NCBI RefSeq assembly: GCF_019968905.1
Contig: NZ_CP079946.1
Span: 5,601,356-5,665,355, forward strand
Length of the DNA stretch: 64,000 bases
Reading direction: 5' to 3'
Source: Corallococcus sp. EGB
GTDB lineage: Bacteria; Myxococcota; Myxococcia; Myxococcales; Myxococcaceae
Below, piece by piece: positions 37,484 to 54,426 of the stretch (positions are counted from its first letter, which is position 1; every line of letters begins with the position of its first letter). The notes beneath the pieces are model-generated. The model did not search any database, was not told the DNA's origin, and saw only the letters and a list, made by a program, of their open reading frames with translations. The position numbers and the translations under genes were made by a program.

Positions 37484-37567
37484 GTGCTCGATGCTGCGTC
37501 GAGGATGAGGCCCGCAGTCTAGGGGGCCCGCCTGACGGGACAAGGAATGCGCCCGGCGCGCCCCGCG

Positions 37568-40500
37568 TCACATCACGCGCGCGTCACGGGCCGGGGGCGG
37601 CGCGAACGCCGGGCTGGGTGGGGCCCGCAGGGTGGACTCGAAGCGGTCCATGCGCCGCAGCTCCGCGCGGGCCTCCACCTCCGTGAAGATGGCGCGCGCA
37701 CGGGCGAGGAAGGCCTCGCGCCGGTGCGGCAGGGCCACCGCCGCGTCGAAGTAGGCCACGCCCGTCTCCCAGCGGTTGGGGCTCCTCTCCAGGACGGCGA
37801 TGGCCTCCAGGAACACCGGCTCCGCGGCCTTCGGCCCCTTGCGCAGCGCCAGCGAGCGCGCCGTCACGCGCAGCGCCGGGCCCTTCAGGTACGGGTAGAG
37901 CCGGGCGATGAGGCGCGCCTTGATGCAGGACAGCCGGACGATCCTCGACAGCTTCCTGCGCGGCACCACCGTGGCGCCCTCCTCCAGCGCGAAGAGGGCC
38001 GCCTCCGCCGCGTCCACCAGCCCCACCTGGAGGAAGGGCACCATCACCTGGTAGCTCCAGATGCTCTTGAAGCAGCGCACCGCGACGAGCGCCGCCTCCT
38101 CCACCTGGTGCTCGCGCACCGTGACGTTGGCCAGGTGGTTGAGGCTGGCGCACTGGTTGGCCAGGTCCGCCACCTCCACGCTGATGCGCAGGCCCTGCTC
38201 CAGCTCCGCGCACAGTTCGCCCACGTCCCCTTCGCCCAGCAGGTAGCGGCACATGGGCGCCCACGAGTGCGCCCAGCCCTGGTGCATCAGCGCGTTGAGC
38301 TCCTCGCCAATGGCGCCCATCTGCTCGTAGAGCGCGACGGCGGCGCGGAAGCGCGAGTGGAGGAACTCGCCCGTGGCCTGCATCATCAGGGACGTCTGGC
38401 GCTCCCAGCGCTCGCCCACCTGGCGCAGCGTGGAGACGGCCTCCTCCTGGAACTCCCGCGCGCGCTGCAGCTCGTTGGCGAAGAAGGCCTGGATGCCCAG
38501 GCGGCTGAGCGCGAGCCCCTCCGCCACCGGGTCCTTGGAGCGCCGCGCGTACTCCAGCGCCTTCTCACAGTGGTAGCGCGCGCGCTTGAGCAGGCCCGCG
38601 CCGAACAGCAGCGTGCCGTAGTAGCCGCGCGCCAGGCTGATGGCGTAGTCGTTGCGCGAGCGCTCCGCCATGTTGGTGGACACCAGCGTCGCCCAGGTGA
38701 GCTTGGTGATGTCCGCGAAGTAGTAGATGCGGATGAGCGAGTTGAGCGTGGACAGCTGCTGCAGGTAGTTGCCCAGCCGCGCCGCCGGCAGCGGCCGCAG
38801 GATGAACGGCAGCAGCGACGCGAGCCCCCGCAGCAGCAGGTTCGCCAGCGTGCGCAGCCCCAGCGCGGGCAGGCTCCCCGGAAGGCTGCGCCCCCGCAGC
38901 ACCAGCGACTTCTCCAGGTGCTGCGTGGCGAGCGCGGACTCGCCCTTCTCCTGGTGCGCGCGGCCCAGCCCCAGGTGCAGCTCCGCCTGGCGCTGGACCT
39001 CCTCCTCGTCCACCAGGCACTGCTCGAACATCAGGATGGCGTTGGCGTAGTGGCCCGCCTGCAGCAGCGTCTCCGCCAGCTCCTGCATCACCCGGCGCGT
39101 CTGCAGCAGCGTCACCTCCGGGTCCACCGGGACGACGGTGCCCAGGAGCTCCAGGCCGCGGTTGTAGTGGTAGAGCGCGTCATCGTTCGCGTACTGCGCC
39201 CGCGCGCTGCGGGCCGCCATCAGCGTGTACTCCAGGCCCTTGTCCTCCACGTTGCCCGCGAGGAAGTGGAACGCGAGCAGCCCCGCGGAGCCCGCGAGGT
39301 TGTCGCTGGCGCGGACCTCCAGGTAGCGCGCGAGCCGGCGGTGCAGGTCCTCGCGCGCCGACACCAGCAGCGTGTTGTAGGCCACGTCGCGGATGACGAT
39401 GTGCTTGAAGAGGCAGGTGTACGGCTCCTCCGTCTCCAGGAGGATGAGGCCCAGGCGCTGGAGCGTGTCCATGGCCTCGCGCAGGACGCGGTGGCCCAGG
39501 GTGGGCACCAGCGCCGCCACGCCATCCAGCGTGAAGATGCGCCCGATGACGGACGCCACCTTCACCACCAGCTTCTCCGTCTCGCTGAGCAGGTCGATGC
39601 GCGACAGCACCACGTCCTGGATGGAGTCCGGGAGGAGGAGGTCCTGCAGGCCCCGCTTCAGCTCCATCCGCGAGGCGCCGGGCTCCACCGGCCCCAGGTA
39701 GCCCTGCTCCGCCAGCCCCTCCACGATGGATTCGATGAAGAACGGGTTGCCCTGCACCTTCGCGAGCAGCCGGTCCTCCAGCGCCACGTCCGGCGGCGAC
39801 AGGCGCAGGTGCACGCGCAAGAGCGCCCGCGTGTCCGCGTCGTCCAGGCTCACCAGGTCCACCGGACGGAACTCCGGCAGCTCGCGCAGGCCCTTGAGCT
39901 GCTCTCCCGGGCGCATCGTCGCCAGCACCATGATGCGGTGCGAGCCCACGCGCCCCGCCACGTACTGCAGCAGGTCCAGGGAGATGTAGTCCGCCCAGTG
40001 CAGGTCCTCGAAGAAGAGCAGCACCGGCTGCGAGCGGCTGAGCTTCTCCAGCAGCTGGAAGACGATCTGGAACACCTTCTGCTGCCTGCGCCGCGCGTCC
40101 ATCCGCGCCGTGGTGGACGTCTCCTCCAGGGACATGCCGAGGATGCCCGCGACCACGGGGATCCACTCCGGCCCCACGTCCTCCAGCCCGTCCAGCCCCT
40201 GGCGCAGGCGCGTCAGCTGCGCCTCGGTGTCATCCGAGTCGAGCAGCCCGAACGCCTGGAGGAGCACCTCCTTCCAGGGGAAGAACGGGGTGAAGGCCTC
40301 GTAGGAGTAGCAGACGCCGTACAGCGCCCGCGCGCCGCCCTCCTCCGCGTCCTCCAGCACGCGCGCGCCCAGGCGCGACTTGCCGATGCCCGCCTCTCCG
40401 GACACCATGCACACGCGGCCCTGGCCCGCGAAGGCCGCGTCGAGCGACTCGCGCAGCATGTCGAGCTCGCGGCCACGGCCGATGATGTCACCCCGGCCCT

Positions 40501-41860
40501 TGATGAAGAGGCTGCGGCGCGTCTCGCCCGAGAGCCGGTACACCGGCACCGAGCGCGAGACGCCCTTCAGCTTCGCGTCCTCCACGAACTCGGTGGCGAA
40601 GCCGCCCTGCTGTGATCTCGCCTGGGTGTGGGAGCACAGGTGCACGCCGCCCTGGCGTCCGCCGTGCGTCATCAGGCGCGCGGCGATGTTCACCACCTCG
40701 CCCAGCGCCGAGTACCCCTTGCGCGTGGGCGAGCCCATGTCCCCGCAGTAGGCGTGGCCGGTGGCGATGCCGATCTGCAGCTCATCCAGGAAGGGGAACT
40801 GCTCGCGGGCCTTGAGCAGCTTGCAGGCCAGCCGGCACGCCAGCACCTCCTTGTTCTGCTGGGCGGTGGGCGCGCCGAAGAGGACGTAGAGCACGTTGCC
40901 CTTGTCCGTGAAGTCCGTCATCAGCAGCACGCCGCCGTGGTGGGCGCTCTCGCGCTGGACGTATTCGTAATAGGCGTTGAGGTCGCGGGTGAAGGCGTCC
41001 GGATCCGCGTCCGCCCGCGCGTGCGTGAAGCGCACGAAGAAGCAGGTGACGTCGCGGAAGTCGCCCGCGAACTCCTGGTGCGCGGTGGTGATCTTCGTGA
41101 AGAGCACCGGGTGCAGGAGCAGCGCGCACCGGCCCACCAACTCCGCTCCGCCCGTGGGCGCGGGCAGCGGGCGCCTCACCGACTCCAGCCGCGCGTCCGC
41201 CGCCAGCCGGTGGTTGCCGCCCTCGCGGGGCTCGCCCCTGCGCACGGCCTCCGGCAGGGCCGCCCAGGCGCGGGGGCTCAGCACGACCTCCGACACGGCG
41301 GCCTGCTTCTCCGCGGCCACCGCCTGCGCCAGCGGCTCGCCCACGAGCGCCGGGTGCATCCACAGGCCGGTGGCGCCCATCACGATGCGCGTGGCCTCAC
41401 CGAACCCGATGCCGATGCGCGACGACACGCCGAAGCGCTGCCCCAACAGCTCCAGCCGGGCGAAGCGCGCGAGCCTGCGCTGCACGTGCAGCGCGCACAC
41501 CGCCGCGCGCTGCACCACGTCCGCGTCCGCCTCCTCGGGCTCGGCCTCGAAGCACGCGAGGATGGAGTCGCCGGCGAACTGGTAGATGTCCCCGCCGTGG
41601 TCTCGGACCACGTCGATCATCTCCGTGTAGTAGTTCGTCAGCAGGCGCTGGAGCGCGTCGATGCCGCGTGGCCCCGCGCCGCTCAGCCCCACCACGATGG
41701 GCGTGAAGCCCGCGATGTCCAGGAGCAGGATGGCGCCCCGCACGCCTTCGGTCCGAGGCAGCGCGTCCGCCTCGTGGCGCTGGAGCCGCGCGAGGATGGC
41801 CGCCGGCATGTAGGGCGCCAGCATCGCGACGGCGGGATCGATGGGCTGCGGGGAGGACAT
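37568..41860 (-). CDS. adenylate/guanylate cyclase domain protein with a central AAA/NB-ARC-like ATPase and C-terminal TPR array
   Basis: Two class-III cyclase-like domains (ILLLDIAGFT...; FFVRFTHARA...GDMGSPTR), Walker A GEAGIGKS, a long TPR/helical C-terminus; about 1430 aa. Confidence 0.8.
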   Translation of the reverse strand: MSSPQPIDPAVAMLAPYMPAAILARLQRHEADALPRTEGVRGAILLLDIAGFTPIVVGLSGAGPRGIDALQRLLTNYYTEMIDVVRDHGGDIYQFAGDSILACFEAEPEEADADVVQRAAVCALHVQRRLARFARLELLGQRFGVSSRIGIGFGEATRIVMGATGLWMHPALVGEPLAQAVAAEKQAAVSEVVLSPRAWAALPEAVRRGEPREGGNHRLAADARLESVRRPLPAPTGGAELVGRCALLLHPVLFTKITTAHQEFAGDFRDVTCFFVRFTHARADADPDAFTRDLNAYYEYVQRESAHHGGVLLMTDFTDKGNVLYVLFGAPTAQQNKEVLACRLACKLLKAREQFPFLDELQIGIATGHAYCGDMGSPTRKGYSALGEVVNIAARLMTHGGRQGGVHLCSHTQARSQQGGFATEFVEDAKLKGVSRSVPVYRLSGETRRSLFIKGRGDIIGRGRELDMLRESLDAAFAGQGRVCMVSGEAGIGKSRLGARVLEDAEEGGARALYGVCYSYEAFTPFFPWKEVLLQAFGLLDSDDTEAQLTRLRQGLDGLEDVGPEWIPVVAGILGMSLEETSTTARMDARRRQQKVFQIVFQLLEKLSRSQPVLLFFEDLHWADYISLDLLQYVAGRVGSHRIMVLATMRPGEQLKGLRELPEFRPVDLVSLDDADTRALLRVHLRLSPPDVALEDRLLAKVQGNPFFIESIVEGLAEQGYLGPVEPGASRMELKRGLQDLLLPDSIQDVVLSRIDLLSETEKLVVKVASVIGRIFTLDGVAALVPTLGHRVLREAMDTLQRLGLILLETEEPYTCLFKHIVIRDVAYNTLLVSAREDLHRRLARYLEVRASDNLAGSAGLLAFHFLAGNVEDKGLEYTLMAARSARAQYANDDALYHYNRGLELLGTVVPVDPEVTLLQTRRVMQELAETLLQAGHYANAILMFEQCLVDEEEVQRQAELHLGLGRAHQEKGESALATQHLEKSLVLRGRSLPGSLPALGLRTLANLLLRGLASLLPFILRPLPAARLGNYLQQLSTLNSLIRIYYFADITKLTWATLVSTNMAERSRNDYAISLARGYYGTLLFGAGLLKRARYHCEKALEYARRSKDPVAEGLALSRLGIQAFFANELQRAREFQEEAVSTLRQVGERWERQTSLMMQATGEFLHSRFRAAVALYEQMGAIGEELNALMHQGWAHSWAPMCRYLLGEGDVGELCAELEQGLRISVEVADLANQCASLNHLANVTVREHQVEEAALVAVRCFKSIWSYQVMVPFLQVGLVDAAEAALFALEEGATVVPRRKLSRIVRLSCIKARLIARLYPYLKGPALRVTARSLALRKGPKAAEPVFLEAIAVLERSPNRWETGVAYFDAAVALPHRREAFLARARAIFTEVEARAELRRMDRFESTLRAPPSPAFAPPPARDARVM

Positions 41861-41877
41861 CCTCGGGGGCTTTCCGC

Positions 41878-42279
41878 TCAGGCCAGGTTGGCGTAGCGCA
41901 GGTAGAGGGCGCCCAGGCACATGACGCCGTAGAGGGGGATCTCCGCCGTCTCCAGCCAGGGCTGCTGCTTCATCACCGCGCCCCAGATGTGCACCGCCGT
42001 CATGATGCCGCCAATGAGGCCGATGAGCTCGAAGATGACCAGGTGGCTCTTGGGGTCCGGGATGAACTGCACCACCGCGATGATGACGGACAGCGCCAGG
42101 CCGCCCAGGCAGCGCGCGAAGTAGACCGTCAGGTCATTGTTGCCCGTGGGCAGCTCCCACCCGAACCACCGCGCCCAGCGCAGCGGCATGAACATCAGCG
42201 GCAGCGCGTAGACGACCAGGAAGACCGAGGTGGAGACCGCGAGGAACCAGCTGGCCAGCGGATAGTCGGGGTTGATCAT
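41878..42279 (-). CDS. small membrane protein (about 133 aa, 4 TM)
   Basis: Sense-like C-terminal part of ORF 41878..42534 from MINPDYPLASWFLAVSTSVFLVVYALPLMF...; 17 bp upstream of the cyclase gene start. Confidence 0.45.
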   Translation of the reverse strand: MINPDYPLASWFLAVSTSVFLVVYALPLMFMPLRWARWFGWELPTGNNDLTVYFARCLGGLALSVIIAVVQFIPDPKSHLVIFELIGLIGGIMTAVHIWGAVMKQQPWLETAEIPLYGVMCLGALYLRYANLA

Positions 42280-42415: not shown

Positions 42416-42946
42416 CTAGCGCGTGGCGGCGAGGAGGAACTCGGCCACCCGCTCCAGGGAGGTGGTGCGCTCGGCCTCGGCCGGGAAGCGCCGGAACACC
42501 TCCGGTGGCCCGTGCAGGATGAGCGGCTTGCCATAGCGCAGCGCCAGGACGGCCTCCGCGACGGTGCCGGCCCCTCCGGGCAGCGCCACCAGCGCGTGCG
42601 GCGTCAGCACGTTGATGTGGTTGCGGCTCATGGGGTCCGTGCCCTGCTCCCCGCTGAGCGGCAGGTGCGTGTAGATGGGGATCTCGATGTCCGTGTTCGG
42701 GTAGCCGGGCCGGGGCTGGTAGCGGCCGTCCGCCCCCACGGTGCCGGGGATGATGCCGATGGCCGCCCCCCGCCGTCCCTCCACCTGCACGAAGGCCCCC
42801 GCCGCGGCGCTCATGACGCCGCCGCCCGCGCCGGTGAGCAGGTCGAAGCCGGCCTCGGCGATCCACCGCGCCAGGGGAACGACCCACTCCTCGTGTGTCG
42901 CCCTGCCGGAGCCGAACACTCCGATGATGCGGCGGTGTCTGCGCAT
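42416..42946 (-). CDS. LOG/TIGR00725 family Rossmann-fold protein (lysine-decarboxylase-like)
   Basis: GVFGSGR...GGGVM...PGGAGT motifs typical of TIGR00725/LOG proteins; 176 aa. Confidence 0.65.
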   Translation of the reverse strand: MRRHRRIIGVFGSGRATHEEWVVPLARWIAEAGFDLLTGAGGGVMSAAAGAFVQVEGRRGAAIGIIPGTVGADGRYQPRPGYPNTDIEIPIYTHLPLSGEQGTDPMSRNHINVLTPHALVALPGGAGTVAEAVLALRYGKPLILHGPPEVFRRFPAEAERTTSLERVAEFLLAATR

Positions 42947-43189
42947 GACTGCGTCCTCCACGAAAGACCGGAACTACGTGTGCCCCTGTTCCATGCGAAT
43001 GCCCGGCCAACGCGGCAAGGGATCACGAACCTCCGGGCGTCCCCGCTCCCGTCCACCCGTGGAAGGTGCGTGACGCGAGCGTCACCTGACCGTCGCTTCC
43101 CTCCGCCCGGGGCGCCAGACGCGGGCTGCACGACCCGTGATGTCGGACCCCTCCTCTACCTTCGGCACAACCAAGCGAGGAGGCCGCCC

Positions 43190-43510: not shown

Positions 43511-43903
43511 ATGGGGCTCGCCGAACGTCAGGAACTGGCCGCGTTCAAACAGGACACCCTCCCAGCGAAGCTGGCGGAGCTGAAGGAGGCCGCGCGCGGG
43601 GCGGACCTCCAGGTCACGCTCGACGAGGAGAGCTTCACCACGGTGGCCGCCATCCAATGGCTGTCCCATGGCATCTTCGACCGGCTCATCGACGACATGA
43701 GGCGCGTCTGCGGCGATGCCATTGGAAAGCAGGCCGTGCGGGAGGGGCTCCAGCGGGTCCACCTCGTTCACCAGGAGGCGCCGGGCTACACGCTGGAGCT
43801 GAAGGACGGCACCCTCACCGTCCGGGCGAAGCTGGACGGCTCCATTGGCGACGACCTGCCCGGCTACGGCACCTACAAGGACTTCTTGTACAAGAAGCTG
43901 TAG
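43511..43903 (+). CDS. hypothetical protein (130 aa)
   Basis: MGLAERQELAAFKQDTLPAKLAELKEAARG...; globular composition; SD ggag upstream. Confidence 0.45.
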   Translation: MGLAERQELAAFKQDTLPAKLAELKEAARGADLQVTLDEESFTTVAAIQWLSHGIFDRLIDDMRRVCGDAIGKQAVREGLQRVHLVHQEAPGYTLELKDGTLTVRAKLDGSIGDDLPGYGTYKDFLYKKL

Positions 43904-43974: not shown

Positions 43975-46900
43975 TCAGGGCACGTCCAGCGCGACGCCCT
44001 GGCCGGGCACGGCCATCACCCAGCGGACGACGTCCGGCTTGCCGCCGCAGGTGACGCGCACCTCGAACTCGCGCCCCGCGGGCATCTGGCTGGACAGCGG
44101 CGTCTGGCCCTCCAGCACCTGCGAGCCCAGTGACACGCGGCACCCCTGGGCGCCGGTGACGCTGAGCGTGCCCCGGGCATCCGCCTGGGGCGCGGCGTCC
44201 GCGAGCGTGCGCAGGTCGATGTGCTCTGACTTGGGCACCTTGCCGAAGCGGTGCAGCTTGCCGTCCACCGCGGTGGAGACGAGCCAGCCCGAGGGGTCCT
44301 CCGGCAGACCGGAGTTCGGATCCAGCAGGACGCCGGACAGGTAGACGCGCTCGCCCTCCTGGGCGTTGCGCACCTCCACACCGCCCTTGGGCAGGAGGAA
44401 CACCAGCGCGAGCCCCGCGAGCACCAGGCCCACACCGCCCACGATGAGCCCCTTGCGCTGACCGGGCGTGAGCCCCTTCCCGCCCGCCGTGGCGGCGGGG
44501 GCCTGGGCCGTGGACGCCACCGCGTGGACGGGGGCCGGCGGCGCGGCCACGGGCGCCACCGGAGGGCGCACGGGCGTCGCGATGGGGGTCACCGGCGGGA
44601 GCGGCGGAGCGGCCACGGGCTGCGGCGGAGCGGCCCCCGGCGGAGGATAGGCCGCGTGGGTGCCCGTCGGCGGCGGCGAAGGGGTCCCCGGCTGAGGCGC
44701 GGGAGGCGCCGCGTATTGCGCGTGGGTGCCGCCAGGCTGCACGGACATGGCCGCGGGGGGCGGCGGCGGAGGGGCCGAGGTCAGGGGCGCGACGGAGGGC
44801 ACCGACACCGACGGACGCTGCGGCGGAGGCCCCACGCGCGTGGGCACGTTGGCGGAGGCGGCCGGCCGCACGGCGGTGGGCGGCGGCAGCGACGACCCGG
44901 GCGCGGGCGCGGCCGGGCGCGAGGGACGCTGCGCGGGCGCGGCCACGGGCGGCGCGGCCGGGGGACGCGTGGGGTCGGCGACGGAGACGACCTCCGTGCC
45001 ACGGTCGGCGGGCTCCGGCGGAGCGGCCACCGGGGGCGGCTCCATCCGGGGCATGCTGCCGGAACCGCCACGCGCGGGCGGCCGGGACAGGTCCGACGGG
45101 GCCCGCATGTCGCTGCCCGAGCCCGAGCCCGTCCCCAGGTTGCGCGAGTGCGAGCCCGTCCCCGGCATCAGCGCACGGGGGTTGGAGCCCGTCCCCGAGC
45201 CGGAGATGGACGACGGCGCGTACTCGGTGAGCCGGTCGCCCAGCGCCTCCTTGAAGAACTGCGCCACCGACGCGGGCGACGAGGACAGCCGGTGGTGCGC
45301 GATGACGGCTTCAATCTCCTCGCGCATCGCCGCGGCGGAGGGCGTGCGCCGCGCCGGGTCCTTCACCAGCGCGCGCAGGATGAGGTCCGACACGTCCTGC
45401 GGAATGTGGGGCCGCAGCTGCGAGGGCACCGGCGCGGGCTCGCGCACGATGGCCGCGAGCGTCGCCGCGTCGTGGTCCCGGCGGAAGGGCAGCTGGCCGG
45501 TGAGCAGCTCGAAGAGCACCACGCCCAGCGCGAACACGTCGTTGCGCCAGTCCAGCGGGCGGCCGCTGGCGGCCTCCGGGGAGAGGTACGAAATCTTTCC
45601 CTTGATGACGCCCGCCTGCGTGTGCTCCTCGCCCTGCACCTTGGCGATGCCGAAGTCCGACAGCTTGATGGCGCCGTCCAGCGACACCAGCACGTTGTGG
45701 GGACTGACGTCGCGGTGCACCACCGGGTGCGCCGTGCCGGACGGGTCCACGTAGCTGTGCGCGTAATGCAGGCCCGCGGCCACCTCCGCCACGATGCGCA
45801 GCGCGTGCTCCAGCGGCAGCGCCATGCCCTTGCGGCGCAGCTCCGTGATGAGGCGCTTGAGGTCCGGGCCGCGCACGTACTCCATCAGGATGTACGCCAC
45901 GCCGTCCGTCACGCCCACGTCGAAGGTCTGGACGACGTTGGGGTGCGTGAGGCGCGCGTTGGCGCGGGCCTCCGCGAAGAGCATGTCGACGAACTCAGGA
46001 TTCTCCGCGAACTGCGCGAGAATCTTCTTCATCACCACGAACTTCTCGAAGCCCTTCACGCCCTGCTGCTTGGCGAGGAAGACCTCCGCCATGCCGCCCT
46101 GCCCCAGCCGGCGGATGATCTGCAGCCGCGCGCCGCCGCTGTGCGTGTCCGTGGGCGACGTGCCCCGGGCGCCGGGGTCCTGGTTGGTGGAGCCGAAGAG
46201 GTACTGGCTGAGCGCGCGCTGCTCCAGCGCCTCGATGTCGTCCAGCGGCTTGTCGGTGAGGGGCGTGCGCGCGAGCAGCCCCTGGAACTGCGCGAGCGCC
46301 GGGGCCCGGGCGGTGCCGCCGCAGACGGGGCACACGCGCTCCATGGTGCCCTTGGCGCGAAGGACCTCCAGGTACTCGGAGGTCTGGATGCGCTGGTGGG
46401 TGACCTGGCCGCAGTTGCGGCAGTCGCACGGCAGCCACAGCGTGGCCAGCTTCGCCGGGAGCGCCTTGGTGGACTTCGCCAGGACGCTCAGGAGCGGCGG
46501 CGGCACGCGGCAGAGGACCACCTGGGCGCCCTGGGACGCGACCTCCAGCACCTGTTCGATGCGCGGCAGCGCCTCCGGCTCCACCACGCTCACGTGGCAG
46601 CAGTCGAAGGCGACGCGCCCCTCCAGGCCGGACGCCAGCCGGCGCACGTTGAGGTCGCCCTTGAGCGTGCTGGCCAGGGTGATGAAGGTGATGTCGTCCT
46701 GGATGATCTTCAGGTGCGACGCGAGCTCGGACGGCTCTGACGGGATGCCCGAGCGCAGGTAGCGCAGCACCGCCGGGTCCACCGCGGAGAACTGCTGGCG
46801 GCGCGCGAAGTCGAAGAACTCCGTGGGCTCGTCCGCGAACTCCAGCGGCTGGGCGCACACCGGGCACTGGTGCGGCGGGGCTCCGCCCTGCTCCAGCACC

Positions 46901-47283
46901 TTCGCCTCCTCCACCAGGCGCACCAGCCGCAGCCGGTCCTCCTTGCAGAAGCGGCACGTGTACGGCGCCAGCATGGAGAGCACGCGCGCGACGCCCGCGA
47001 AGCCCTCCACCATGTTGAGCTGATCCACCACCACCGGCGGCGCGTTGACGACGTACAGCCCCGACACGCCCTGCGGCGGGTGGCCGGCGAACTCGATCCA
47101 CCGGCGCACGCCGAAGGAGCTGATGCGCTCCACCAGGCCCAGGTCCACCACCACCAGGCCCTGGAGGCCCTTGGAGGTGGACGTGAGGGGGAAGGTTTCG
47201 TCGATCACCCCGGCCACGCGCACGTGGGTCAGACTGCCCACGCGCAGGGAGGTGATGCTGGCATTGGAAGTTTGGCTCTCCAC
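43975..47283 (-). CDS. Ser/Thr protein kinase fused to two N-terminal STAS (anti-sigma-antagonist-like) domains and zinc ribbons; Pro-rich linker, one TM helix, C-terminal extracytoplasmic domain
   Basis: STAS-like SLRVGSLTHVRVAGVIDETF and a second copy; CxxC pairs (CRFCKED...CPVCAQ; CDCRNCGQ...CPVCGG); kinase motifs GQGGMAEVFLAK, HRDVSPHNVLV, DFGIAK; about 230 aa Pro/Ala-rich region; TM LIVGGVGLVLAGLALVFLL. Start taken as GTG (VESQTSNASITSL) after gagggtagg; the ORF's ATG at 47364 is also possible. Confidence 0.75.
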   Translation of the reverse strand: MESQTSNASITSLRVGSLTHVRVAGVIDETFPLTSTSKGLQGLVVVDLGLVERISSFGVRRWIEFAGHPPQGVSGLYVVNAPPVVVDQLNMVEGFAGVARVLSMLAPYTCRFCKEDRLRLVRLVEEAKVLEQGGAPPHQCPVCAQPLEFADEPTEFFDFARRQQFSAVDPAVLRYLRSGIPSEPSELASHLKIIQDDITFITLASTLKGDLNVRRLASGLEGRVAFDCCHVSVVEPEALPRIEQVLEVASQGAQVVLCRVPPPLLSVLAKSTKALPAKLATLWLPCDCRNCGQVTHQRIQTSEYLEVLRAKGTMERVCPVCGGTARAPALAQFQGLLARTPLTDKPLDDIEALEQRALSQYLFGSTNQDPGARGTSPTDTHSGGARLQIIRRLGQGGMAEVFLAKQQGVKGFEKFVVMKKILAQFAENPEFVDMLFAEARANARLTHPNVVQTFDVGVTDGVAYILMEYVRGPDLKRLITELRRKGMALPLEHALRIVAEVAAGLHYAHSYVDPSGTAHPVVHRDVSPHNVLVSLDGAIKLSDFGIAKVQGEEHTQAGVIKGKISYLSPEAASGRPLDWRNDVFALGVVLFELLTGQLPFRRDHDAATLAAIVREPAPVPSQLRPHIPQDVSDLILRALVKDPARRTPSAAAMREEIEAVIAHHRLSSSPASVAQFFKEALGDRLTEYAPSSISGSGTGSNPRALMPGTGSHSRNLGTGSGSGSDMRAPSDLSRPPARGGSGSMPRMEPPPVAAPPEPADRGTEVVSVADPTRPPAAPPVAAPAQRPSRPAAPAPGSSLPPPTAVRPAASANVPTRVGPPPQRPSVSVPSVAPLTSAPPPPPPAAMSVQPGGTHAQYAAPPAPQPGTPSPPPTGTHAAYPPPGAAPPQPVAAPPLPPVTPIATPVRPPVAPVAAPPAPVHAVASTAQAPAATAGGKGLTPGQRKGLIVGGVGLVLAGLALVFLLPKGGVEVRNAQEGERVYLSGVLLDPNSGLPEDPSGWLVSTAVDGKLHRFGKVPKSEHIDLRTLADAAPQADARGTLSVTGAQGCRVSLGSQVLEGQTPLSSQMPAGREFEVRVTCGGKPDVVRWVMAVPGQGVALDVP

Positions 47284-47287
47284 CCGC

Positions 47288-48130
47288 CTACCCTCGTTCC
47301 AGACAGAACAGCAGCGACTTGGGCTGCGCGGCCCGGCGGCGCGCATCCCCCAGGTCCACCCCACAGGTGAACTGGGTCCGCTTCCCCGGGGTCACCCGCA
47401 CGGCGACCGCGTCGCTGTGCTCCAGGATGCGCCGCAGCCCCAGGCCCGCGCCACCCCCCGAGGCATCCACCTGCGCCTTCTCACCCCACGCCCTCACCAC
47501 CCGCACCAGCGGTGACACCGGCATGCGGCCGAAGCGATCCGTTGCCTCCAGCCACGCGCGGCCCTCCACCACCGCCCAGGACAAAAGGCAGCGGTCCTCC
47601 TCCTCCACCGCCTGCACCTGCCCCCGCCGGTGGGCGTACTTCGGCTCGCCGCTTCCGTCCACCGGAGCGTCGAGCAGGGCGTTCACGCCAATCTCATGGA
47701 CGACATCCGCCACCCGGCCGGCCGCGCCCTTGGAGCCGCCGGCCTGGAGGACGGCCTCCGCCACGCGCTCGCCCACGGCCGTCACCTCCGCCACGCTGCC
47801 CAGCCACGTGACGGACGTGGCGGCCTCCTGCGGAATCATGGGCTCGCCGCGCAAGAGCGCGCTCAAGAGGCGCGCCTCCCAGGCGGACGGCTGGCCCCCC
47901 TCGCGGGTGGCCAGGAGCAGCGCTGGGGGCCTGCGCTCCAGGAGCGCGGCGTGGGCGGGGGTGAACCGCCCGTCGAACAGCACCAGGTGCGGTGCCGCGT
48001 CGTCTCCCTTCCCCAACTGCAGGCCATCACGGGCCAGCACCCCGGAGGCCTTCTCCAGCGCCTCCGGCGTGAGCGTCGTGTCCGGCGTCAACTTCAGGGG
48101 AGCATCCTTCACGGCGGCAGCGGTTTCCAA
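47288..48130 (-). CDS. GHKL-type ATPase (RsbW/anti-sigma-kinase-like) with a degenerate receiver-like N-terminal domain
   Basis: C-terminal HEIGVNALLDA...DASGGGAGLGLRRIL (N-box, G2-box-like); ends 4 nt before the kinase gene start. Confidence 0.55.
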   Translation of the reverse strand: METAAAVKDAPLKLTPDTTLTPEALEKASGVLARDGLQLGKGDDAAPHLVLFDGRFTPAHAALLERRPPALLLATREGGQPSAWEARLLSALLRGEPMIPQEAATSVTWLGSVAEVTAVGERVAEAVLQAGGSKGAAGRVADVVHEIGVNALLDAPVDGSGEPKYAHRRGQVQAVEEEDRCLLSWAVVEGRAWLEATDRFGRMPVSPLVRVVRAWGEKAQVDASGGGAGLGLRRILEHSDAVAVRVTPGKRTQFTCGVDLGDARRRAAQPKSLLFCLERG

Positions 48131-48138
48131 ACAAGGCC

Positions 48139-50745
48139 CTAGTAGTGGAGCCGGACTTCGGTGAAGACGCCCAGCGGCGGGGCGGGGAAGCCGTGGGACT
48201 CCTCGTACTTCGCGTTGAAGAGGTTGGTACCCAACAGGGACACCGCCACGCGCTCGTGGACGTTGAAGCCCACGCGCGCGGTCGCGGTGATGTAGCTGGG
48301 CAGCTTCACGCGGGTGGTGGTGCCGGCGTTCTCATCCACCACGAAGCCCGGATCATACCGTGCGCCCACGAACAGGCCGTAGAGCTCCACGAAGGCGAAC
48401 TTGCCGATGTTGGTGCGGCCGCGCAGGTACACGCGGTGGCTGGGCGCGTAGTCCAGCGGGTAGCTGGCCCCGCCGCCCACCGGCAACGCCTGGGCGTCCA
48501 GGAACTGGTAGGCCACGTCGAAGGACGAGTTGAGGGACGGCACCTGCGCCGCGGCCTCCGCCTCGAAGCCCGCCACGCGCGCGTCGCCCAGGTTCTGGAA
48601 CTGCGAGGTGGAGCCGAAGAGGAGCTCCTGGTTGATGAAGTTCCGGGCGCGGTTGTAGAAGCCCGTGCCCGTCAGGCGCACCTTGCGGTCGAAGGGCCAG
48701 AAGTCCACGGCCGCCTCCACCGTGTCCAGCGTCTCCGCGCGCAGCGCCGGGTTGCCCAGCAGCGTCGCGGCGTACATCTGCTGGTTGATGGCCAGCTCCG
48801 CCAGCGTGGGCGCGCGGAAGGCGCGGCCGTAGTTGGTGCGCAGCGTGAGCAGCTCCGGGATGGCGTGGAACACGACGCTGGCGCGAGGGGAGATCTGATC
48901 CGTGCGCTCCGACCAGACCTTGGAGGGGATCTGGTAGTTGTCGTACCGGGCGCCGCCGCCCACCACCAGCCGGTCCGTGATGCGGTACTCCGCGTCCACG
49001 AAGCCGCCCAGGATGGTCTGCTTCGTGTCGTCCAGGGTCAGGCCGGGGAGGACGTTCTGGTTGTTGACCTGGTCGGCCTTGATGTCGCCGCCCACGGTGA
49101 CGGACAGCTTGTCCAGGGAGAACAGCGCGCGCGCCTCGCCGCCCAGGCGGCTGCGCTTGCCGAGCGTGTCCTCCAGCGCGCCGGTGATCTCGTTCTCCAG
49201 CGTCACGTTGCGGCGCTTGAAGAACGCGTAGCCCTGGGCGAACACGCGCACGTTGTCCGTCACCTGCTGATCCAGCTGCAGGGCGGCGTTGAGGTTCTGG
49301 ACGTGCTCGTTGTCCTGCGCGGTGTAGTGGCAGCGGCCGCAGTTGCCCACGGTGGAGATGTTCTGACCGCCGGGCCGGCCGATGTTGCCGTCGGTGAAGT
49401 CCGCGTCCAGCGCAAGGGGGCCCACGCGGACCTTGCCGTTCACCTGGTGGACCAGCGAGTCCTCGTTGGTGTCCGTCTGGTTGAGCTGCGGGTTGTTGAA
49501 GAGCTGCGGGCCGTCCGAGCCGAACCCGTAGTAGCCGAGCAGCGCCTCCACCGGGCCGCCGCGGCCGGCGACGTTGGTCTGCAGGCGCCAGGTCTTGTCC
49601 TGGCCCGCGAGGATGCGCGCGTCCGCGCCCACGTTCTGGCCCTTGGCGATGAGATCGCCGGGCTGGCGCTCGATGATGTTGATGACGCCGCTGAAGGCGT
49701 TGGAGCCGTAGAGCGACGAACCCGGGCCGCGAATCACCTCCACCTGCTTCAGGTTGGTGAGCGGCGTCGTCTCATCCGCGTAGAACTGGCCCGTCCAGGG
49801 GTCCGTCAGGGGACGGCCGTCCTTGAGGAGCAGGAGCCGGTTGGACAGGTAGTTGGAGCCCAGGCCGCGCGCGCTCACCGCCGCCTTGCGCATGGAGCCC
49901 CGGCGGCACTCCATGCCCGGGAAGTACTGGATGGCCTCGCAGAGCGAGAACTGGCCGGTGCCCTCCAGCTCCTCCGCCGGAATCCAGGACACCGTGAGGG
50001 GCACGTCGGAGATGCGCTGGCTGCGCTTGGAGGCCGTGGTGACGACGGCCTCGCTCAGCGCCATGTTGATGTTCTTCTCCAGGTCGTCGCCTCCGCCCAG
50101 GTCCGGGCCGTCCAGGCCGGAGAGGCTGGAGGGCGGCGGCAGCGCGCGGTCCGGGGTGGGCTCCGTGAAGGGCGCGCGGTCCGGGACGTTGGTCGCCGCG
50201 CGCGGCTGCGACGACGGCAGCACCGCGCCGGAGCCCAGCGCGGGCGGCGGGTTGGAAGGAACGTCGGTGGTCAGCGGCCCGTCATAGGGCGACGTGGGCG
50301 AGGCCACGGGCAGCGGATCCGACACGGACGGGCCGGGGCCGGCCAGCGGGGGCGGAGGCGGCGTGTGCGCCGGCTCGTTGGCGAGCGCGGGCTCCTGCGG
50401 CTGGGTGGGCGCCTCGTCCGGAATGAACTCCGGCTCCACCGGCGGAGGCGGCGTCTTCGCGCCCCGGCGCGTCTTCGCGGCGCGCGGCGGCTTCGCCCCC
50501 GGAGTCGCCGTCTTCGCGCCCGGGGAGGTGGCCGCCTTCGCGCCCGGGGGGGTGGCCGCGCGTTTGCGGGCCGTCTTGGTCCGCGTCTTGGAGGCGGGCT
50601 CCTGGGCCTCCTGGGCCCGGGCCGTCTCCAGCGTGAACAGGGACAGCGCGCAGACCACCAGGGTAAGGCATGCGCGCGCGCTCAGCCGCCCGGCAAACCC
50701 CTTCACCGCGTTGGTGCGCGGCCCACCGTACTCAGTCGAGTCCAT
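48139..50745 (-). CDS. TonB-dependent outer-membrane receptor with a long Pro/Ala/Lys-rich N-terminal extension
   Basis: Signal peptide, then about 200 aa of low-complexity sequence (AKAATSPGAKTATPGAKPP...), plug (EVIRGPGSSLYGSNAFSGVINII), beta-barrel and a C-terminal aromatic strand VRLHY. Contains a CGRCH motif. Confidence 0.8.
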   Translation of the reverse strand: MDSTEYGGPRTNAVKGFAGRLSARACLTLVVCALSLFTLETARAQEAQEPASKTRTKTARKRAATPPGAKAATSPGAKTATPGAKPPRAAKTRRGAKTPPPPVEPEFIPDEAPTQPQEPALANEPAHTPPPPPLAGPGPSVSDPLPVASPTSPYDGPLTTDVPSNPPPALGSGAVLPSSQPRAATNVPDRAPFTEPTPDRALPPPSSLSGLDGPDLGGGDDLEKNINMALSEAVVTTASKRSQRISDVPLTVSWIPAEELEGTGQFSLCEAIQYFPGMECRRGSMRKAAVSARGLGSNYLSNRLLLLKDGRPLTDPWTGQFYADETTPLTNLKQVEVIRGPGSSLYGSNAFSGVINIIERQPGDLIAKGQNVGADARILAGQDKTWRLQTNVAGRGGPVEALLGYYGFGSDGPQLFNNPQLNQTDTNEDSLVHQVNGKVRVGPLALDADFTDGNIGRPGGQNISTVGNCGRCHYTAQDNEHVQNLNAALQLDQQVTDNVRVFAQGYAFFKRRNVTLENEITGALEDTLGKRSRLGGEARALFSLDKLSVTVGGDIKADQVNNQNVLPGLTLDDTKQTILGGFVDAEYRITDRLVVGGGARYDNYQIPSKVWSERTDQISPRASVVFHAIPELLTLRTNYGRAFRAPTLAELAINQQMYAATLLGNPALRAETLDTVEAAVDFWPFDRKVRLTGTGFYNRARNFINQELLFGSTSQFQNLGDARVAGFEAEAAAQVPSLNSSFDVAYQFLDAQALPVGGGASYPLDYAPSHRVYLRGRTNIGKFAFVELYGLFVGARYDPGFVVDENAGTTTRVKLPSYITATARVGFNVHERVAVSLLGTNLFNAKYEESHGFPAPPLGVFTEVRLHY

Positions 50746-50981
50746 CGTTCTCAATTCCACGAGGGGGAAGCAGGGATGTCCGCGGTCCTTGCGCCAGGAG
50801 CCAGAGCCGGTGCGACTGGCAATCGCTCAGGGGGTCGAGTTTCCACCCCTGAACGATGGCGTTCCGCTCGACTTCTCAAATTACCGCAATAACTCGCCTT
50901 AGGCCAAGTCATGGCTGTCGATCGCGGCAAAACACGCGCACGGCGACGGGAGCGCCGTGCGCTGATCAGCCCACGGCGCAA

Positions 50982-51908
50982 TCAGTCATCCGGCTGTTCA
51001 GCGGAGACGGACAGGTCGTCCGCGAACGGAGGCAGCGCGGGACCCAGCGAGTCGGACCGCACCAGGACGGGCGTCTCCACCCGCAGGTCGGGCGCGTCCG
51101 CGAGGACGGGCTGACGGCGCGGGGGCCCCTGGGTGACGAGCTTGCGGAAGTCCTCGAACTCGTGGCCCTGGATGCGGGCGAAGGCGTCGAACGGAGCGAC
51201 CGCACCGACGGAGGACAGGGACTGGGACAACGCGTCCGCCCCGCCCTTCACCTCCACCAGCACGGCGCCGGGCACCCGGGCGCTCTTGAAGAGGACGCGC
51301 AGGTCCTTGGGCACGTGCGAGACGGGCACGAGCGCGGCCTCCGCGCCCTTGGCCTCCAGCATCTTCACGGCCGACTCCACGTTGGGCACCGGCACCAGCT
51401 TGAAGTGCTTCTGGGCATCCAGGTCGCCGCCCAGCACGACGTGGGTGACGAACTTGGGATCCGCGGGACCCGCGCCCTTGACCACCGCCAGCCGCTTGCC
51501 GGCGAGGTCCTTCACGCTGCCCTTCTGGCTGGAGATGATGGCCCAGCGCTGCTGCGTCTCACCGGCGCGCGGCGCGTACGCCACGGGCTGCGCCTTGGCG
51601 CCCAGTTGCACCGCGGCCCAGCCGTCCACCACGGCGAAGTCGATCTGCCCCTCCCCCACCGCCTTGGCGAAGTCCTCGTAGCGGCCGAAGCTCTTGCCGG
51701 TGACGGGGCGGCCCAGGCTGGCCTCCAGCTTCTGGGCGAGCGCTTCCGCGTACTGGAAGCGCTCCTGGCCGTCCGACAGCGTGGTGGCGAGGAACACCCC
51801 CAGCGTGGCCTTCTTCGGCGCGGCGGACGCGGGGCGGGCAACGACGACGGCGAACAACACGGCGGCGAGCAGGACGCTCCACCGCGCGACAAGGGATGGC
51901 GTCTTCAC
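50982..51908 (-). CDS. periplasmic substrate-binding protein, PhnD/SsuA-like (phosphonate/phosphite ABC-type)
   Basis: Signal peptide MKTPSLVARWSVLLAAVLFAVVVARPASA; PBP type-2 fold features; the start overlaps the TPR gene stop (ATGA). Confidence 0.6.
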   Translation of the reverse strand: MKTPSLVARWSVLLAAVLFAVVVARPASAAPKKATLGVFLATTLSDGQERFQYAEALAQKLEASLGRPVTGKSFGRYEDFAKAVGEGQIDFAVVDGWAAVQLGAKAQPVAYAPRAGETQQRWAIISSQKGSVKDLAGKRLAVVKGAGPADPKFVTHVVLGGDLDAQKHFKLVPVPNVESAVKMLEAKGAEAALVPVSHVPKDLRVLFKSARVPGAVLVEVKGGADALSQSLSSVGAVAPFDAFARIQGHEFEDFRKLVTQGPPRRQPVLADAPDLRVETPVLVRSDSLGPALPPFADDLSVSAEQPDD

Positions 51909-54418
51909 GGCGTCTCCTCCGCGACCCCGGTGGCCGGCGTGGCGCCCTGCGCGTCACCCAGTCCATAGAGGCCCTGCAGGCGGTCCTTCCATTCACGCAC
52001 CTGGGCGGCGCGGGCTCCCGAGGCGGACACCAGGTAGCGCCGCCATGCGTCCACGGCCTCGGCGGGCTCGTGCCGGCGCTCCTGCGCGTCGATGCCCAGG
52101 TTGAGCGAGGCGATGGGCACGGACGTCTCCAGGCGCTTCCACGTGGCCAGCGCCGACGCGGTGTCACCCTGGCGCCAGTCCACGCACGCCAGGTTGTGCT
52201 GCACCACCGCGTCGTCGGGCGTCGCGGCGAGCGCGGCCTTCAGCGCCTTCTCCGACGCCTTCATGTTGCCGGAGGCGTAGGCGAGGGCGGCCTCGCGCCG
52301 CAGCAGCGCGCCGGTGAAGTGACCCATCCACTTCGGCTGTCCGGGCATGGGCTTCTTCTGGGCGGTGGCGAGCAGCTTGCGCGCGGGCGCCACCTTGCCC
52401 TGGCGGTAGAGGACATACGCGTCCGCGAGCGTGCGCGTGTTGGGCCACGCCCACTCCGGCGCCGGGGTGAGGGCGCGCTTGAGCCCCGCGGTGGCCTCCG
52501 CGAACCGCCCCTCCTCCGCGCGCGTGAGCGCCCGCGCGAAGGTGGCCAGCTTCGCCAGGTCCGAGCCCTTGCCGGTGCCCAGGCGGTCCACGGCGTCCAG
52601 GTCCCGGTTCGCCGCGGCGGCGTCGCCCACCTCCAGCTTCGCCAGGGCGCGGCGCACGAGCACGCGGGGCAGGTTCGCCTCCGCCACCTTCGCGGCCGTC
52701 TTGGAGGGGCCCGCGTCCGTCAGCCGCTGCACGGCGGCGTCCACCTGGCCCAGCTCCACCTCCGCGAGCGCGGCGCCCGCGGACGCCTCCGCGCGCTGAT
52801 CCGGCTCCTGCGTGGCCTCACCGGACTGGGTGAAGGCGGCGAGCGCGGCCTGCGCGTCGCCGCTGCCCAGCCGCGCGTAGCCCAGGAGCAGGTGCTCGCG
52901 CCAGGTCGCGCCCGGCAGCGTCACCGCGCCCTCCATCACCTTGCGGGCCTCCGCGTACTGGTGGCTGTCCAGCAGCGCCGCGCCCAGCCGCCGGGCCATG
53001 GGCACGGAGCGGTCCAGGTCATACGCGCGGCGCAGGTCGCGCACGGCGTCATCCAGGCGCTGCGTGCCGGCGCGCTCCCTCGCGCGGTGGGCCAGCGCCT
53101 GCGCCAGCCACTGCTTCGCGCCGGGGTGGCCCGGTTCGACCTGGAGCGCGCTGCCATAGTCCTCGATGGACTGATCCCACTGGCCGGTGGCGAAGTGATC
53201 CGCGCCCAGCAGCATCCAGCCCAGCGCCTGGCGCGGGGCCATCTCCACCACGCGCCGGTGCACCTCCACCGCGCGCTGGAAGCGGCCGGCGCGGCGGTTG
53301 ACGGAGCCCAGCGTCGCCCACAGCTCCAGGCTGCCGCCGCCCGACTTCACCGCGGACTCCAGGAACTGGATGGCCTCCTCGTGGCGGGACTGCGCCTGGA
53401 GCGCCTTGCCCACGGCGATCTGCCCCATCAGCAGGCCCGGCTGCAGCTCCAGCACCTTGCGGAACTCGGCCTCCGCCTGCGCGGGCTGCTTCTGCGCGAG
53501 CCGCACGTCGCCGAGCAGCAGGTGCGCGGCGGGCGTGGCGCCCAGCTTCATCAGGGCCGTGGCCTGGATGTCCGCGCGCGGCACGTCGCCCGCGGCGAGG
53601 TACAGGCGCGCGAGGCGCTCCTTCGGCTCCGCCACCTGCGGGAACTTCGTCACCAGCCGCTCGAGGAGCGCGCGGGCCTCCGCCACCTGCCCCTCCAGCT
53701 CCAGCACGGCCGCGAGGCCGATCTGCGCGGTCGCGGACTCCGCCCGGCCGGCCTGCGCCTTCTCGAACGAGGCGCGCGCGGCGCCAGCATCCCGGCGCAG
53801 GAGGTGCGCCTTGCCCAGCAGCTCGTGGATCTGGAAGTCGTTGGCCGCGAGCTTCTCCGGGCGCAGCGCCAGGTAGCGCTGCAGCCGCGTCACGGCCCGG
53901 TTCCCGTCCTGGGCGTACAGGTAGTAGCTGGCCAGGTAGTAGTGGACGATGAGGTGGTCCGGCTGATCCGCCGCGGCCACCTGCTCCAGCACCGGGACGG
54001 CCTCCTGGAAGCGGCGCAGCTTGAAGTACGCGGTGCCCAGCGGGTACGCGAGCGCCAGGTCCTGCGGGTTCTGCGCGAACACGGGCTGAAGGCGCGCGGC
54101 CGTGCGCTGGAAGTCCTGGAGCGCGTTGGCGGCGCTGCCCAGGCCCGCGGCGGCGGAGACGGACTGCGGCTCCTGGGTGAGCGCCTGCTCGAAGAGGTTG
54201 AGCGCCTTCTTGAACTTCTCCTCCGCCTCCTTCTTGTCGCCCTTGGCGGCGGCGGCGTTGGCGGACACGAGCGCCTGTTCACCCTGCTCCGTCATGCGCT
54301 GCGCCTCGGTGGCGGGCGGCGGGCGGAACTGGGCGAGCGCCGTCGGCGGGCCGGCCAGGGTGGCCAGCAGGACGAGCGCGGTGGAGACGCGGCGCGGGGA
54401 ACGGATGAATGGGCGCAT
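51905..54418 (-). CDS. secreted TPR-repeat protein
   Basis: Signal peptide STALVLLATLAGPPTALAQ; about 800 aa of TPR-like helical repeats rich in A/L/E/R. Confidence 0.7.
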   Translation of the reverse strand: MRPFIRSPRRVSTALVLLATLAGPPTALAQFRPPPATEAQRMTEQGEQALVSANAAAAKGDKKEAEEKFKKALNLFEQALTQEPQSVSAAAGLGSAANALQDFQRTAARLQPVFAQNPQDLALAYPLGTAYFKLRRFQEAVPVLEQVAAADQPDHLIVHYYLASYYLYAQDGNRAVTRLQRYLALRPEKLAANDFQIHELLGKAHLLRRDAGAARASFEKAQAGRAESATAQIGLAAVLELEGQVAEARALLERLVTKFPQVAEPKERLARLYLAAGDVPRADIQATALMKLGATPAAHLLLGDVRLAQKQPAQAEAEFRKVLELQPGLLMGQIAVGKALQAQSRHEEAIQFLESAVKSGGGSLELWATLGSVNRRAGRFQRAVEVHRRVVEMAPRQALGWMLLGADHFATGQWDQSIEDYGSALQVEPGHPGAKQWLAQALAHRARERAGTQRLDDAVRDLRRAYDLDRSVPMARRLGAALLDSHQYAEARKVMEGAVTLPGATWREHLLLGYARLGSGDAQAALAAFTQSGEATQEPDQRAEASAGAALAEVELGQVDAAVQRLTDAGPSKTAAKVAEANLPRVLVRRALAKLEVGDAAAANRDLDAVDRLGTGKGSDLAKLATFARALTRAEEGRFAEATAGLKRALTPAPEWAWPNTRTLADAYVLYRQGKVAPARKLLATAQKKPMPGQPKWMGHFTGALLRREAALAYASGNMKASEKALKAALAATPDDAVVQHNLACVDWRQGDTASALATWKRLETSVPIASLNLGIDAQERRHEPAEAVDAWRRYLVSASGARAAQVREWKDRLQGLYGLGDAQGATPATGVAEETP

Positions 54419-54426
54419 GCGGTTCG

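Follow-up and report, generated by a model that had tools for sequence, protein, structure and literature searches.

SiaABCD of Pseudomonas aeruginosa comprises a HAMP-bearing PP2C phosphatase (SiaA), a kinase (SiaB), a STAS-like protein (SiaC) and a diguanylate cyclase (SiaD), and the stressosome, formed by RsbR, RsbS and RsbT, is a 1.8-MDa assembly. Myxobacteria have about 100 Hanks-type kinases, and the regulation of most of these is unexplained. In the All4160/HenR/Alr3423 system of Anabaena PCC 7120, a STAS domain is joined in cis to the enzyme that it regulates, and function is controlled through phosphorylation of this domain by a partner kinase and its dephosphorylation by a phosphatase (PMC13555669). 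Fusions of STAS (COG1366) to eukaryotic-like kinases have been noted bioinformatically in Sorangium cellulosum (Treuner-Lange 2010, PMC2887360); the same study saw no STAS-kinase fusion in Myxococcus xanthus, and described very little co-organization of kinase and phosphatase genes in these genomes. Here we describe a gene in a 64,000-nucleotide stretch of Corallococcus sp. EGB (contig NZ_CP079946.1, positions 5,601,356 to 5,665,355; hereafter “the window”) whose product joins two STAS modules, each followed by a zinc ribbon, to a Hanks-type kinase, and which lies downstream of genes for a putative GHKL kinase and a SpoIIE-type PP2C phosphatase. Partner switching is defined by three parts, and all of them are present and linked here: a STAS domain that conserves the Ser, a kinase of GHKL type and a PP2C of SpoIIE type. 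We propose, with a probability of about 0.6, that this is a partner-switching-like switch in which the GHKL kinase and the PP2C phosphatase act in opposition on one residue, Ser56, and thereby set the activity of the fused Hanks kinase.

A sequence-only reading of this DNA had called the N-terminal region a tandem of STAS domains, a call that would have fallen had profile searches shown it to be unlike STAS or SpoIIAA. The searches instead returned weak STAS matches. With the whole alignment, a profile search of the PDB was swamped by kinases and, with the ribbon included, by C2H2 zinc fingers; trimmed to the STAS region, the profile matched STAS chains, though no more than weakly. Separate profiles of modules 1 and 2 weakly match the STAS chains of prestin, MlaB, RsfB and SpoIIAA (E 0.02-0.9). 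The AlphaFold2 (AF2) model of the N-terminal STAS region (pLDDT 85) has the STAS alpha/beta fold. The two modules are duplicates of each other (hhalign probability 92%), and a search of related loci with the module-1 profile recovers module 2 as well. PF01740 is matched by 16 of 22 homologues at E <= 1, and the best of these matches (2.2e-17) may stem from a second, canonical STAS in the chimeric-looking homologue P0005 rather than from this module. P0005, on a 2.7-kb metagenome contig from ENA, carries the first STAS and ribbon and the start of the second STAS, followed by unrelated sequence with cNMP-binding domains and a canonical STAS; either a domain swap that arose in nature or a chimeric assembly could account for it.

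The motif R-[IML]-[ST]-S-[FY]-G-V-R-x-W of module 1 is conserved in related loci. Within it, Ser56 is invariant and Ser/Thr55 is conserved. Ser56 begins helix 56-67, and hidden Markov model alignments place it on the Ser of the FMDS-VG (prestin) and FLGS-VG (RsfB) STAS motifs, which we take to be the phospho-Ser position of SpoIIAA/RsbV-type proteins. The same alignments set residue 55 on the Asp/Gly position of the motif, and we favor Ser56 over Ser/Thr55 as the probable acceptor. The site in module 1 is Ser in 123 of 127 two-module representatives of the wider family. In module 2, Pro occupies this site in 59 of the representatives, and only 13 have Ser or Thr. Because Ser is near-universal in module 1 and Ser/Thr rare in module 2, only the first STAS looks phosphorylatable. 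The sequence-only reading had suggested a look for a phosphorylatable Ser in each STAS; module 1 supplies one, and module 2 of the window protein has Glu235-Pro236 in its place, so that the second phospho-site is, to judge by these residues, degenerate.

Each STAS ends in a predicted Cys4 ribbon at the place of the last STAS helix in the AF2 model, which has short strands there; zinc-ribbon profile matches are weak. The four-Cys knuckles had been picked out in the sequence-only reading, and both quartets (C110/C113/C140/C143 and C288/C291/C318/C321) are conserved in homologues. We suggest that the ribbons stand in for the last STAS helix and probably widen the interaction surface; they might also add a redox or metal checkpoint.

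The presumed output, fused to the modules, is a kinase domain, at residues 388-653, that matches Pkinase in Pfam with an E-value of 1.2e-41 (143 bits, cut-off 31.7). It has a Gly-loop (GQGGMAEV, 394-401), the beta3 Lys within VVMKK (416-420), DFG (543-545) and SPE (568-570). The match and these motifs bear out the Hanks-type kinase of the sequence-only reading, as does the rest of the protein for the Pro/Ala stretch (about residues 681-940; 27% Pro, 18% Ala) and the transmembrane helix (a single hydrophobic segment, 946-965) described beyond it. The outer domain is shorter than the roughly 170 residues it had been given: its length is 137 aa (966-1102). PEGA (PF08308) matches this domain weakly in 8 of 14 homologues (best 1.2e-5), and has no match in the window protein.

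The gene immediately upstream, 4 nt away, encodes a 280-aa protein that is predicted to begin with an alpha/beta domain (aa ~12-110) and to continue, in its C-terminal part, as a Bergerat ATP-binding fold. This protein shares 100% identity with one of Corallococcus sp. EGB, so that the window stems from that strain or from one nearly identical to it. Its AF2 model has a pLDDT of 88 and a pTM of 0.88, with a low-confidence stretch (223-226) at the place of the ATP lid. The best Foldseek matches are SpoIIAB (1l0o/1til; E 6e-6, TM 0.65-0.73), SiaB (6kko), RsbW (6m37) and UsfX (8ih8), all GHKL proteins that were crystallized in complex with a STAS-type partner. Invariant in the alignment of its homologues are E146/N150, D198-x-F-G201 and G225-G-G-A-G-L-G231, which, by their order and character, appear to correspond to the N, G1 and G2 boxes that GHKL ATPases carry. 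The modeled structure and these boxes together identify a predicted SpoIIAB/RsbW-type GHKL fold. The conserved N-terminal alpha/beta domain of about 100 aa (window 47800-48097) has no counterpart in SpoIIAB. It consists of beta-alpha repeats with the motifs LVLFDGRL and PPALLLATR; by eye, it looks receiver-like in its strand/helix order, and it has no conserved acceptor Asp.

Do the STAS-ribbon modules need to be phosphorylated at all? Many STAS domains, including those of SLC26 proteins and MlaB, act without phosphorylation, and such domains are among the matches. The modules could instead serve in dimerization or in binding of a ligand (nucleotide, lipid, or a redox or zinc cue through the Cys4 sites, since each module has four invariant Cys with which metal or redox state could be sensed). 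The upstream protein would then be a catalytically dead GHKL-like binder or chaperone, as its atypical G1 box and missing profile match would allow, and the PP2C phosphatase would reverse the Hanks kinase's own phosphorylations. We consider this improbable. The near-absolute [ST]-S at the canonical site of module 1 only (123/127) is hard to explain without phosphorylation, and the invariant N-box Glu/Asn and the GGGAGLG lid motif argue for nucleotide binding. Moreover, STAS proteins are the characteristic targets of SpoIIE-type PP2C phosphatases (PMC11418112; PMC2887360).

The phosphatase heads a run of six genes on one strand, in the order HAMP-SpoIIE phosphatase, TPR protein, PhnD-like protein, TonB-dependent receptor, GHKL protein and STAS-kinase (Table 1). 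The first two junctions are overlaps of 4 nt each, and the next three are gaps of 221, 8 and 4 nt. The phosphatase matches SpoIIE (PF07228) with an E-value of 4.6e-39 (134.8 bits) and HAMP with 4e-9 (37.1 bits; cut-offs 25 each), and has hydrophobic segments at 83-115 and 262-286. STAS, GHKL kinase and PP2C phosphatase are thus encoded together in one same-strand cluster, both here and in M. xanthus. None of the six genes matches a sigma-factor family in Pfam.

Table 1. Features of the STAS-kinase gene and its cluster, in window coordinates
Feature	Position	Strand	Remarks
STAS-ZnR-STAS-ZnR-Hanks kinase-Pro/Ala linker-TM-outer domain protein (ZnR, zinc ribbon; TM, transmembrane helix)	43975..47283	-	1102 aa, GTG start
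C-terminal extracytoplasmic domain (aa 966-1102, 137 aa), predicted	43978..44388	-	two invariant Cys
Sole predicted TM helix (aa 946-965)	44389..44448	-	single hydrophobic segment
Pro/Ala-rich low-complexity linker (about aa 690-940)	44464..45216	-	
Hanks-type kinase domain (aa 388-653)	45325..46122	-	Pkinase PF00069
Zinc ribbon 2, predicted (aa 288-326)	46306..46422	-	C288-x2-C291 ... C318-x2-C321, invariant or nearly so
STAS module 2 (aa 191-288)	46420..46713	-	Glu235-Pro236 at place of module 1 Ser55-Ser56
Zinc ribbon 1, predicted (aa 110-150)	46834..46956	-	C110-x2-C113 ... C140-x2-C143, invariant in homologues
STAS module 1 (aa 8-109)	46957..47262	-	Ser56 codon 47116..47118, Ser/Thr55 before it, N-terminus of helix 56-67
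Cryptic SpoIIAB/RsbW-like GHKL protein, predicted, 280 aa	47288..48130	-	274-aa version from GTG 48112; MXAN_4558 orthologue
TonB-dependent receptor (Plug + beta-barrel)	48139..50760	-	8 nt from GHKL gene; MXAN_4559 orthologue
PhnD-like periplasmic binding protein	50982..51908	-	signal-peptide-like N-terminus
TPR protein, 841 aa	51905..54430	-	4-nt overlap with each flanking gene
Membrane sensor-HAMP-SpoIIE (PP2C) phosphatase, 599 aa	54427..56226	-	MXAN_4562 orthologue

How would these parts work together? We propose that the GHKL protein docks on STAS module 1 to phosphorylate Ser56, and that the PP2C phosphatase removes the phosphate. An envelope signal, received through the periplasmic loop and HAMP domain, would set the activity of the phosphatase, possibly with the involvement of the TonB-dependent receptor and the PhnD-like and TPR proteins. 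The phosphorylation or occupancy state of the first STAS would then turn the fused Hanks kinase on or off, in cis or through oligomerization, so that the Hanks kinase would hold the place that a sigma factor, or the diguanylate cyclase in SiaABCD, holds in known systems. Module 2, lacking the Ser, probably has a structural role or serves in docking. Our analysis shows the predicted folds, the conservation of the motifs and that of the gene linkage; we infer which protein phosphorylates which, and whether kinase activity would rise or fall as a result. The sequence-only reading had suggested that an anti-sigma-antagonist-type input is fused to the kinase, and this idea gains from the SpoIIAB-like gene next upstream and the HAMP-PP2C gene at the head of the cluster. 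It needs two qualifications: only the first STAS keeps a phosphorylatable Ser, and STAS-kinase fusion had already been noted for Sorangium cellulosum.

The six genes occur in identical order in M. xanthus DK1622, as MXAN_4562 to MXAN_4557. MXAN_4558 is named by the source and MXAN_4559 is listed as a TonB-dependent receptor; the remaining tags fit the order, and the STAS-kinase is presumably the orthologue of MXAN_4557. MXAN_4562 has been described as a HAMP-bearing protein and as the one phosphatase in M. xanthus that is SpoIIE-like (PMC2887360). When one genome per species was scanned, 119 relatives emerged, and 79 loci were kept. Almost all of these are labeled Myxococcota (labels as recorded), one record being titled Comamonas sp. 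and a few metagenome-assembled genomes (MAGs) bearing only “Proteobacteria” or “delta proteobacterium”. They include Corallococcus, Myxococcus, Pyxidicoccus, Archangium, Cystobacter, Hyalangium, Vitiosangium, Kofleriaceae and Polyangia MAGs. A GHKL homologue ends -60 to +400 nt upstream, on the same strand, of 69 of 92 related STAS-module open reading frames (ORFs), among them one at a Kofleriaceae locus (hhalign 98%). A PP2C homologue lies directly beside the GHKL gene in three loci (L070, L063, L071) and is divergent in a fourth (L064). A 625-aa gene upstream of the family member at L005 was considered as a GHKL gene and rejected, being unrelated to the GHKL family; on that contig the STAS-kinase homologue is split into two gene calls by what looks like a frameshift.

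Several observations weigh against our proposal. The STAS_2 profile scores 16.6 bits with the full protein and 23.1 bits (E 8.6e-5) with its N-terminal part, against a cut-off of 29.2, and the protein reaches no STAS score (PF01740/PF13466) above the Pfam gathering cut-off. The GHKL protein and the 32-member alignment of its homologues match no profile in Pfam, NCBIfam or the PDB sequences; the GHKL assignment rests on predicted structure and motifs, and with a G1 box that reads DxFG rather than DxGxG, the protein could be a non-catalytic binder. The catalytic loop of the Hanks kinase, HRDVSPHN (523-530; window 45695-45718), has the HRD and the Asn of the usual HRDxKxxN and lacks its Lys, so that kinase activity is not certain. 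This variant is found in 73 of 89 related family members, and also in most kinase-bearing representatives. Between the phosphatase and GHKL genes of the Corallococcus/Myxococcus clade lie three envelope genes, and with the 221-nt gap inside the cluster a single operon is not certain. No GHKL gene adjoins the paralogous copies in Archangium, Cystobacter and Vitiosangium, and the tandem arrays of Kofleriaceae are further exceptions to GHKL adjacency. We found no mention of MXAN_4557 or MXAN_4558 in the literature, and no study of this locus. Finally, the phosphorylation, binding and activity of every component are predictions.

The second STAS-kinase paralogues without an adjacent GHKL gene are at L045, L049, L053, L054, L055 and L066-L068. 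Such paralogues still keep the Ser, and autophosphorylation is common in Hanks kinases. Hence, the Hanks domain might itself phosphorylate Ser55/Ser56, in cis or in trans, with the GHKL and PP2C genes being functionally unrelated neighbors. We give this very little credence: the adjacency of GHKL and tandem STAS-ribbon genes spans distant Myxococcota and three output architectures, one of which is kinase-less. The arrays, in Kofleriaceae and Polyangia MAGs (L073, L080), contain two or three STAS-kinase genes and one or two GHKL genes.

The tandem STAS-ribbon unit extends beyond the kinase fusions. An exhaustive profile search found 3812 representatives (50% identity) at E <= 1e-3, and 290 at E <= 1e-30; nearly all of the best 150 of the 3812 have two matched stretches. 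A word-indexed protein search returned 21 mostly partial N-terminal homologues and missed the full-length Corallococcus/Myxococcus orthologues, and by itself would have badly underestimated the size of the family relative to the exhaustive search. The unit is also present in proteins of about 700 aa with the layout (STAS-ZnR)2-unknown-PDZ, in FIST-(STAS-ZnR)2-PDZ proteins, and in Pkinase-FIST-FIST-(STAS-ZnR)2-PDZ proteins of up to 1900 aa; P0159, P0226 and P0267 are among the proteins of these types. Pfam leaves it unannotated in these PDZ and FIST proteins. Among the loci examined for these types (L086, L089), a kinase-less (STAS-ZnR)2-PDZ member has a GHKL homologue immediately upstream (hhalign 99.3%), and a FIST-(STAS-ZnR)2-PDZ member is followed by a Hanks kinase gene and then a GHKL homologue. 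Because GHKL homologues accompany units without a kinase domain, the partner of the GHKL family is, as far as these gene arrangements indicate, the STAS-ribbon unit and not the kinase domain.

We tentatively extend this to a broader interpretation, on which we would not yet rely: that the tandem STAS-Cys4 ribbon unit and a dedicated, cryptic GHKL kinase form an undescribed, widespread cassette with varied outputs. These could include Hanks kinases, PDZ proteins and FIST proteins, and in Myxococcus and Corallococcus the sole SpoIIE-type phosphatase might, with equal reserve, be the master input of the Hanks kinase. If so, this would be the first direct hierarchical link from partner switching to eukaryotic-like kinase signaling.

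The same distribution bears on a different assignment of roles, close to that of the stressosome and RsbT. The tandem STAS hub would sequester the GHKL protein; a signal, which could be autophosphorylation by the Hanks kinase, would lead the GHKL protein to phosphorylate Ser56 and to be released to another target, for example for activation of the HAMP-PP2C phosphatase. The Hanks kinase would be an input or scaffold, and the output would be delivered by the GHKL protein through its N-terminal alpha/beta domain. The association of the GHKL family with kinase-less (STAS-ZnR)2 proteins fits this arrangement, as does the extra conserved domain of about 100 aa that SpoIIAB lacks, and the combination of one phosphorylatable and one non-phosphorylatable STAS recalls the pairing of RsbS with RsbR. 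However, a large oligomer is unsupported, the cluster encodes neither a second STAS-only protein nor an RsbX-like reset phosphatase, and Foldseek places SpoIIAB, SiaB and RsbW closest to the GHKL protein, with no RsbT chain among the 50 matches listed. We therefore regard this arrangement as unlikely, and prefer a switch in which Ser56 controls the fused Hanks kinase.

The STAS-kinase ORF stands at 43975-47283 as first read, with a product of 1102 aa from GTG 47283; the open frame as a whole extends over 43975..47364 on the reverse strand. The start codon had been left ambiguous between GTG 47283 and an ATG at 47364. The first is the likely start, and position 47364 is itself a GTG, the nearest ATG being at 47346. 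We take GTG 47283 as the probable start because it lies 4 nt past the TAG stop of the upstream gene, has GAGGG about 8 nt 5ʹ of it, and has Val1 within 0-5 codons of the N-termini of orthologues. The longer frame from GTG 47364 was rejected: it would share 77 nt with the upstream gene, and homologue N-termini lie no more than 5 codons from 47283. In M. xanthus, the start of the kinase gene overlaps the end of the upstream gene by 4 nt (L003, 6840 vs 6843). The window has a G+C content of about 70%. ORFs on the opposite strand of the kinase gene (e.g. 44251..46740, forward strand, 829 aa) were treated as spurious, with no Pfam run, because long spurious frames are usual in DNA of 70-76% GC; the translation of 44251..46740 is of low complexity and rich in Arg, Gly and His.

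The TonB-dependent receptor gene, which encodes a long Pro/Ala-rich N-terminal extension, and the PhnD-like and TPR genes together occupy 48139-54430, between the PP2C and GHKL genes. Loci of Corallococcus, Myxococcus, Archangium and Hyalangium all have the trio at this place. In L070, L063 and L071 the trio is missing, and the PP2C and GHKL genes are direct neighbors. The three proteins may be envelope-side signal-delivery components. Downstream of the kinase gene, the window has a SLOG/LOG-family (LDcluster4) protein gene (42416-42961, reverse strand). M. xanthus has lanthipeptide-dehydratase-like genes at this position instead, and synteny therefore ends at the kinase gene. A 130-aa ORF (43511-43903, forward strand) is convergent with the kinase gene and weakly matches DciA (E 0.15). 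Further away, two forward-strand ORFs of 1022 aa and 422 aa (37547-41896) have no Pfam match at E <= 0.001, and a 1450-aa ORF on the opposite strand (37568..41920) overlaps both.

What is the significance of this locus? One Hanks kinase gains candidate regulators, a GHKL Ser kinase and a sensor PP2C phosphatase, together with a single residue, Ser56, to mutate. Candidate partners also emerge for MXAN_4562, the one SpoIIE-like phosphatase that M. xanthus has. Annotation with standard profiles overlooks the STAS-ribbon cassette as well as the GHKL protein that accompanies it; partner-switching modules are therefore probably under-counted in Myxococcota. If our proposal is correct, partner switching can drive another protein kinase directly, so that two phosphorylation systems are stacked.

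Comparison with described systems places the locus as follows. It shares with SpoIIAA/SpoIIAB/SpoIIE and RsbV/RsbW/RsbU of Bacillus subtilis a STAS domain whose helix 2 has a Ser at its N-terminus, together with a GHKL kinase and a SpoIIE-family PP2C, and the predicted folds match SpoIIAA/AB- and RsbV/W-type proteins best. Unlike the Bacillus modules, the cluster has no sigma factor, and the STAS domain is duplicated, capped by Cys4 ribbons and fused to a Hanks kinase; unlike SpoIIAB and RsbW, the GHKL protein carries an additional domain at its N-terminus and escapes detection by sequence profiles. In contrast to the 1.8-MDa stressosome, an assembly of a kind that has no support here, the STAS domains lie within one membrane-anchored polypeptide with the Hanks kinase. 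The STAS-kinase fusions of Sorangium cellulosum, another myxobacterium, have the same general architecture, but were not linked to a cognate GHKL kinase (PMC2887360), and the fusion described here is too divergent for standard profiles. The closest working analogues appear to be SiaABCD and Anabaena All4160/HenR/Alr3423. Like SiaABCD, the locus has a HAMP-PP2C input and an enzyme output, but the output is a Hanks kinase fused to the STAS domains, whereas the SiaABCD enzyme is bound by its STAS protein in trans. All4160/HenR/Alr3423, which likewise has its STAS fused in cis to the regulated enzyme, contains one STAS domain, lacks zinc ribbons and has a glycosyltransferase as its output; at this locus the output is a protein kinase, so that the locus, unlike All4160, would stack two phosphorylation systems. 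New in this locus is a partner-switching-like module in which the STAS domain is duplicated and capped by ribbons, the GHKL partner is invisible to profiles, and a fused Hanks kinase is the presumed output.

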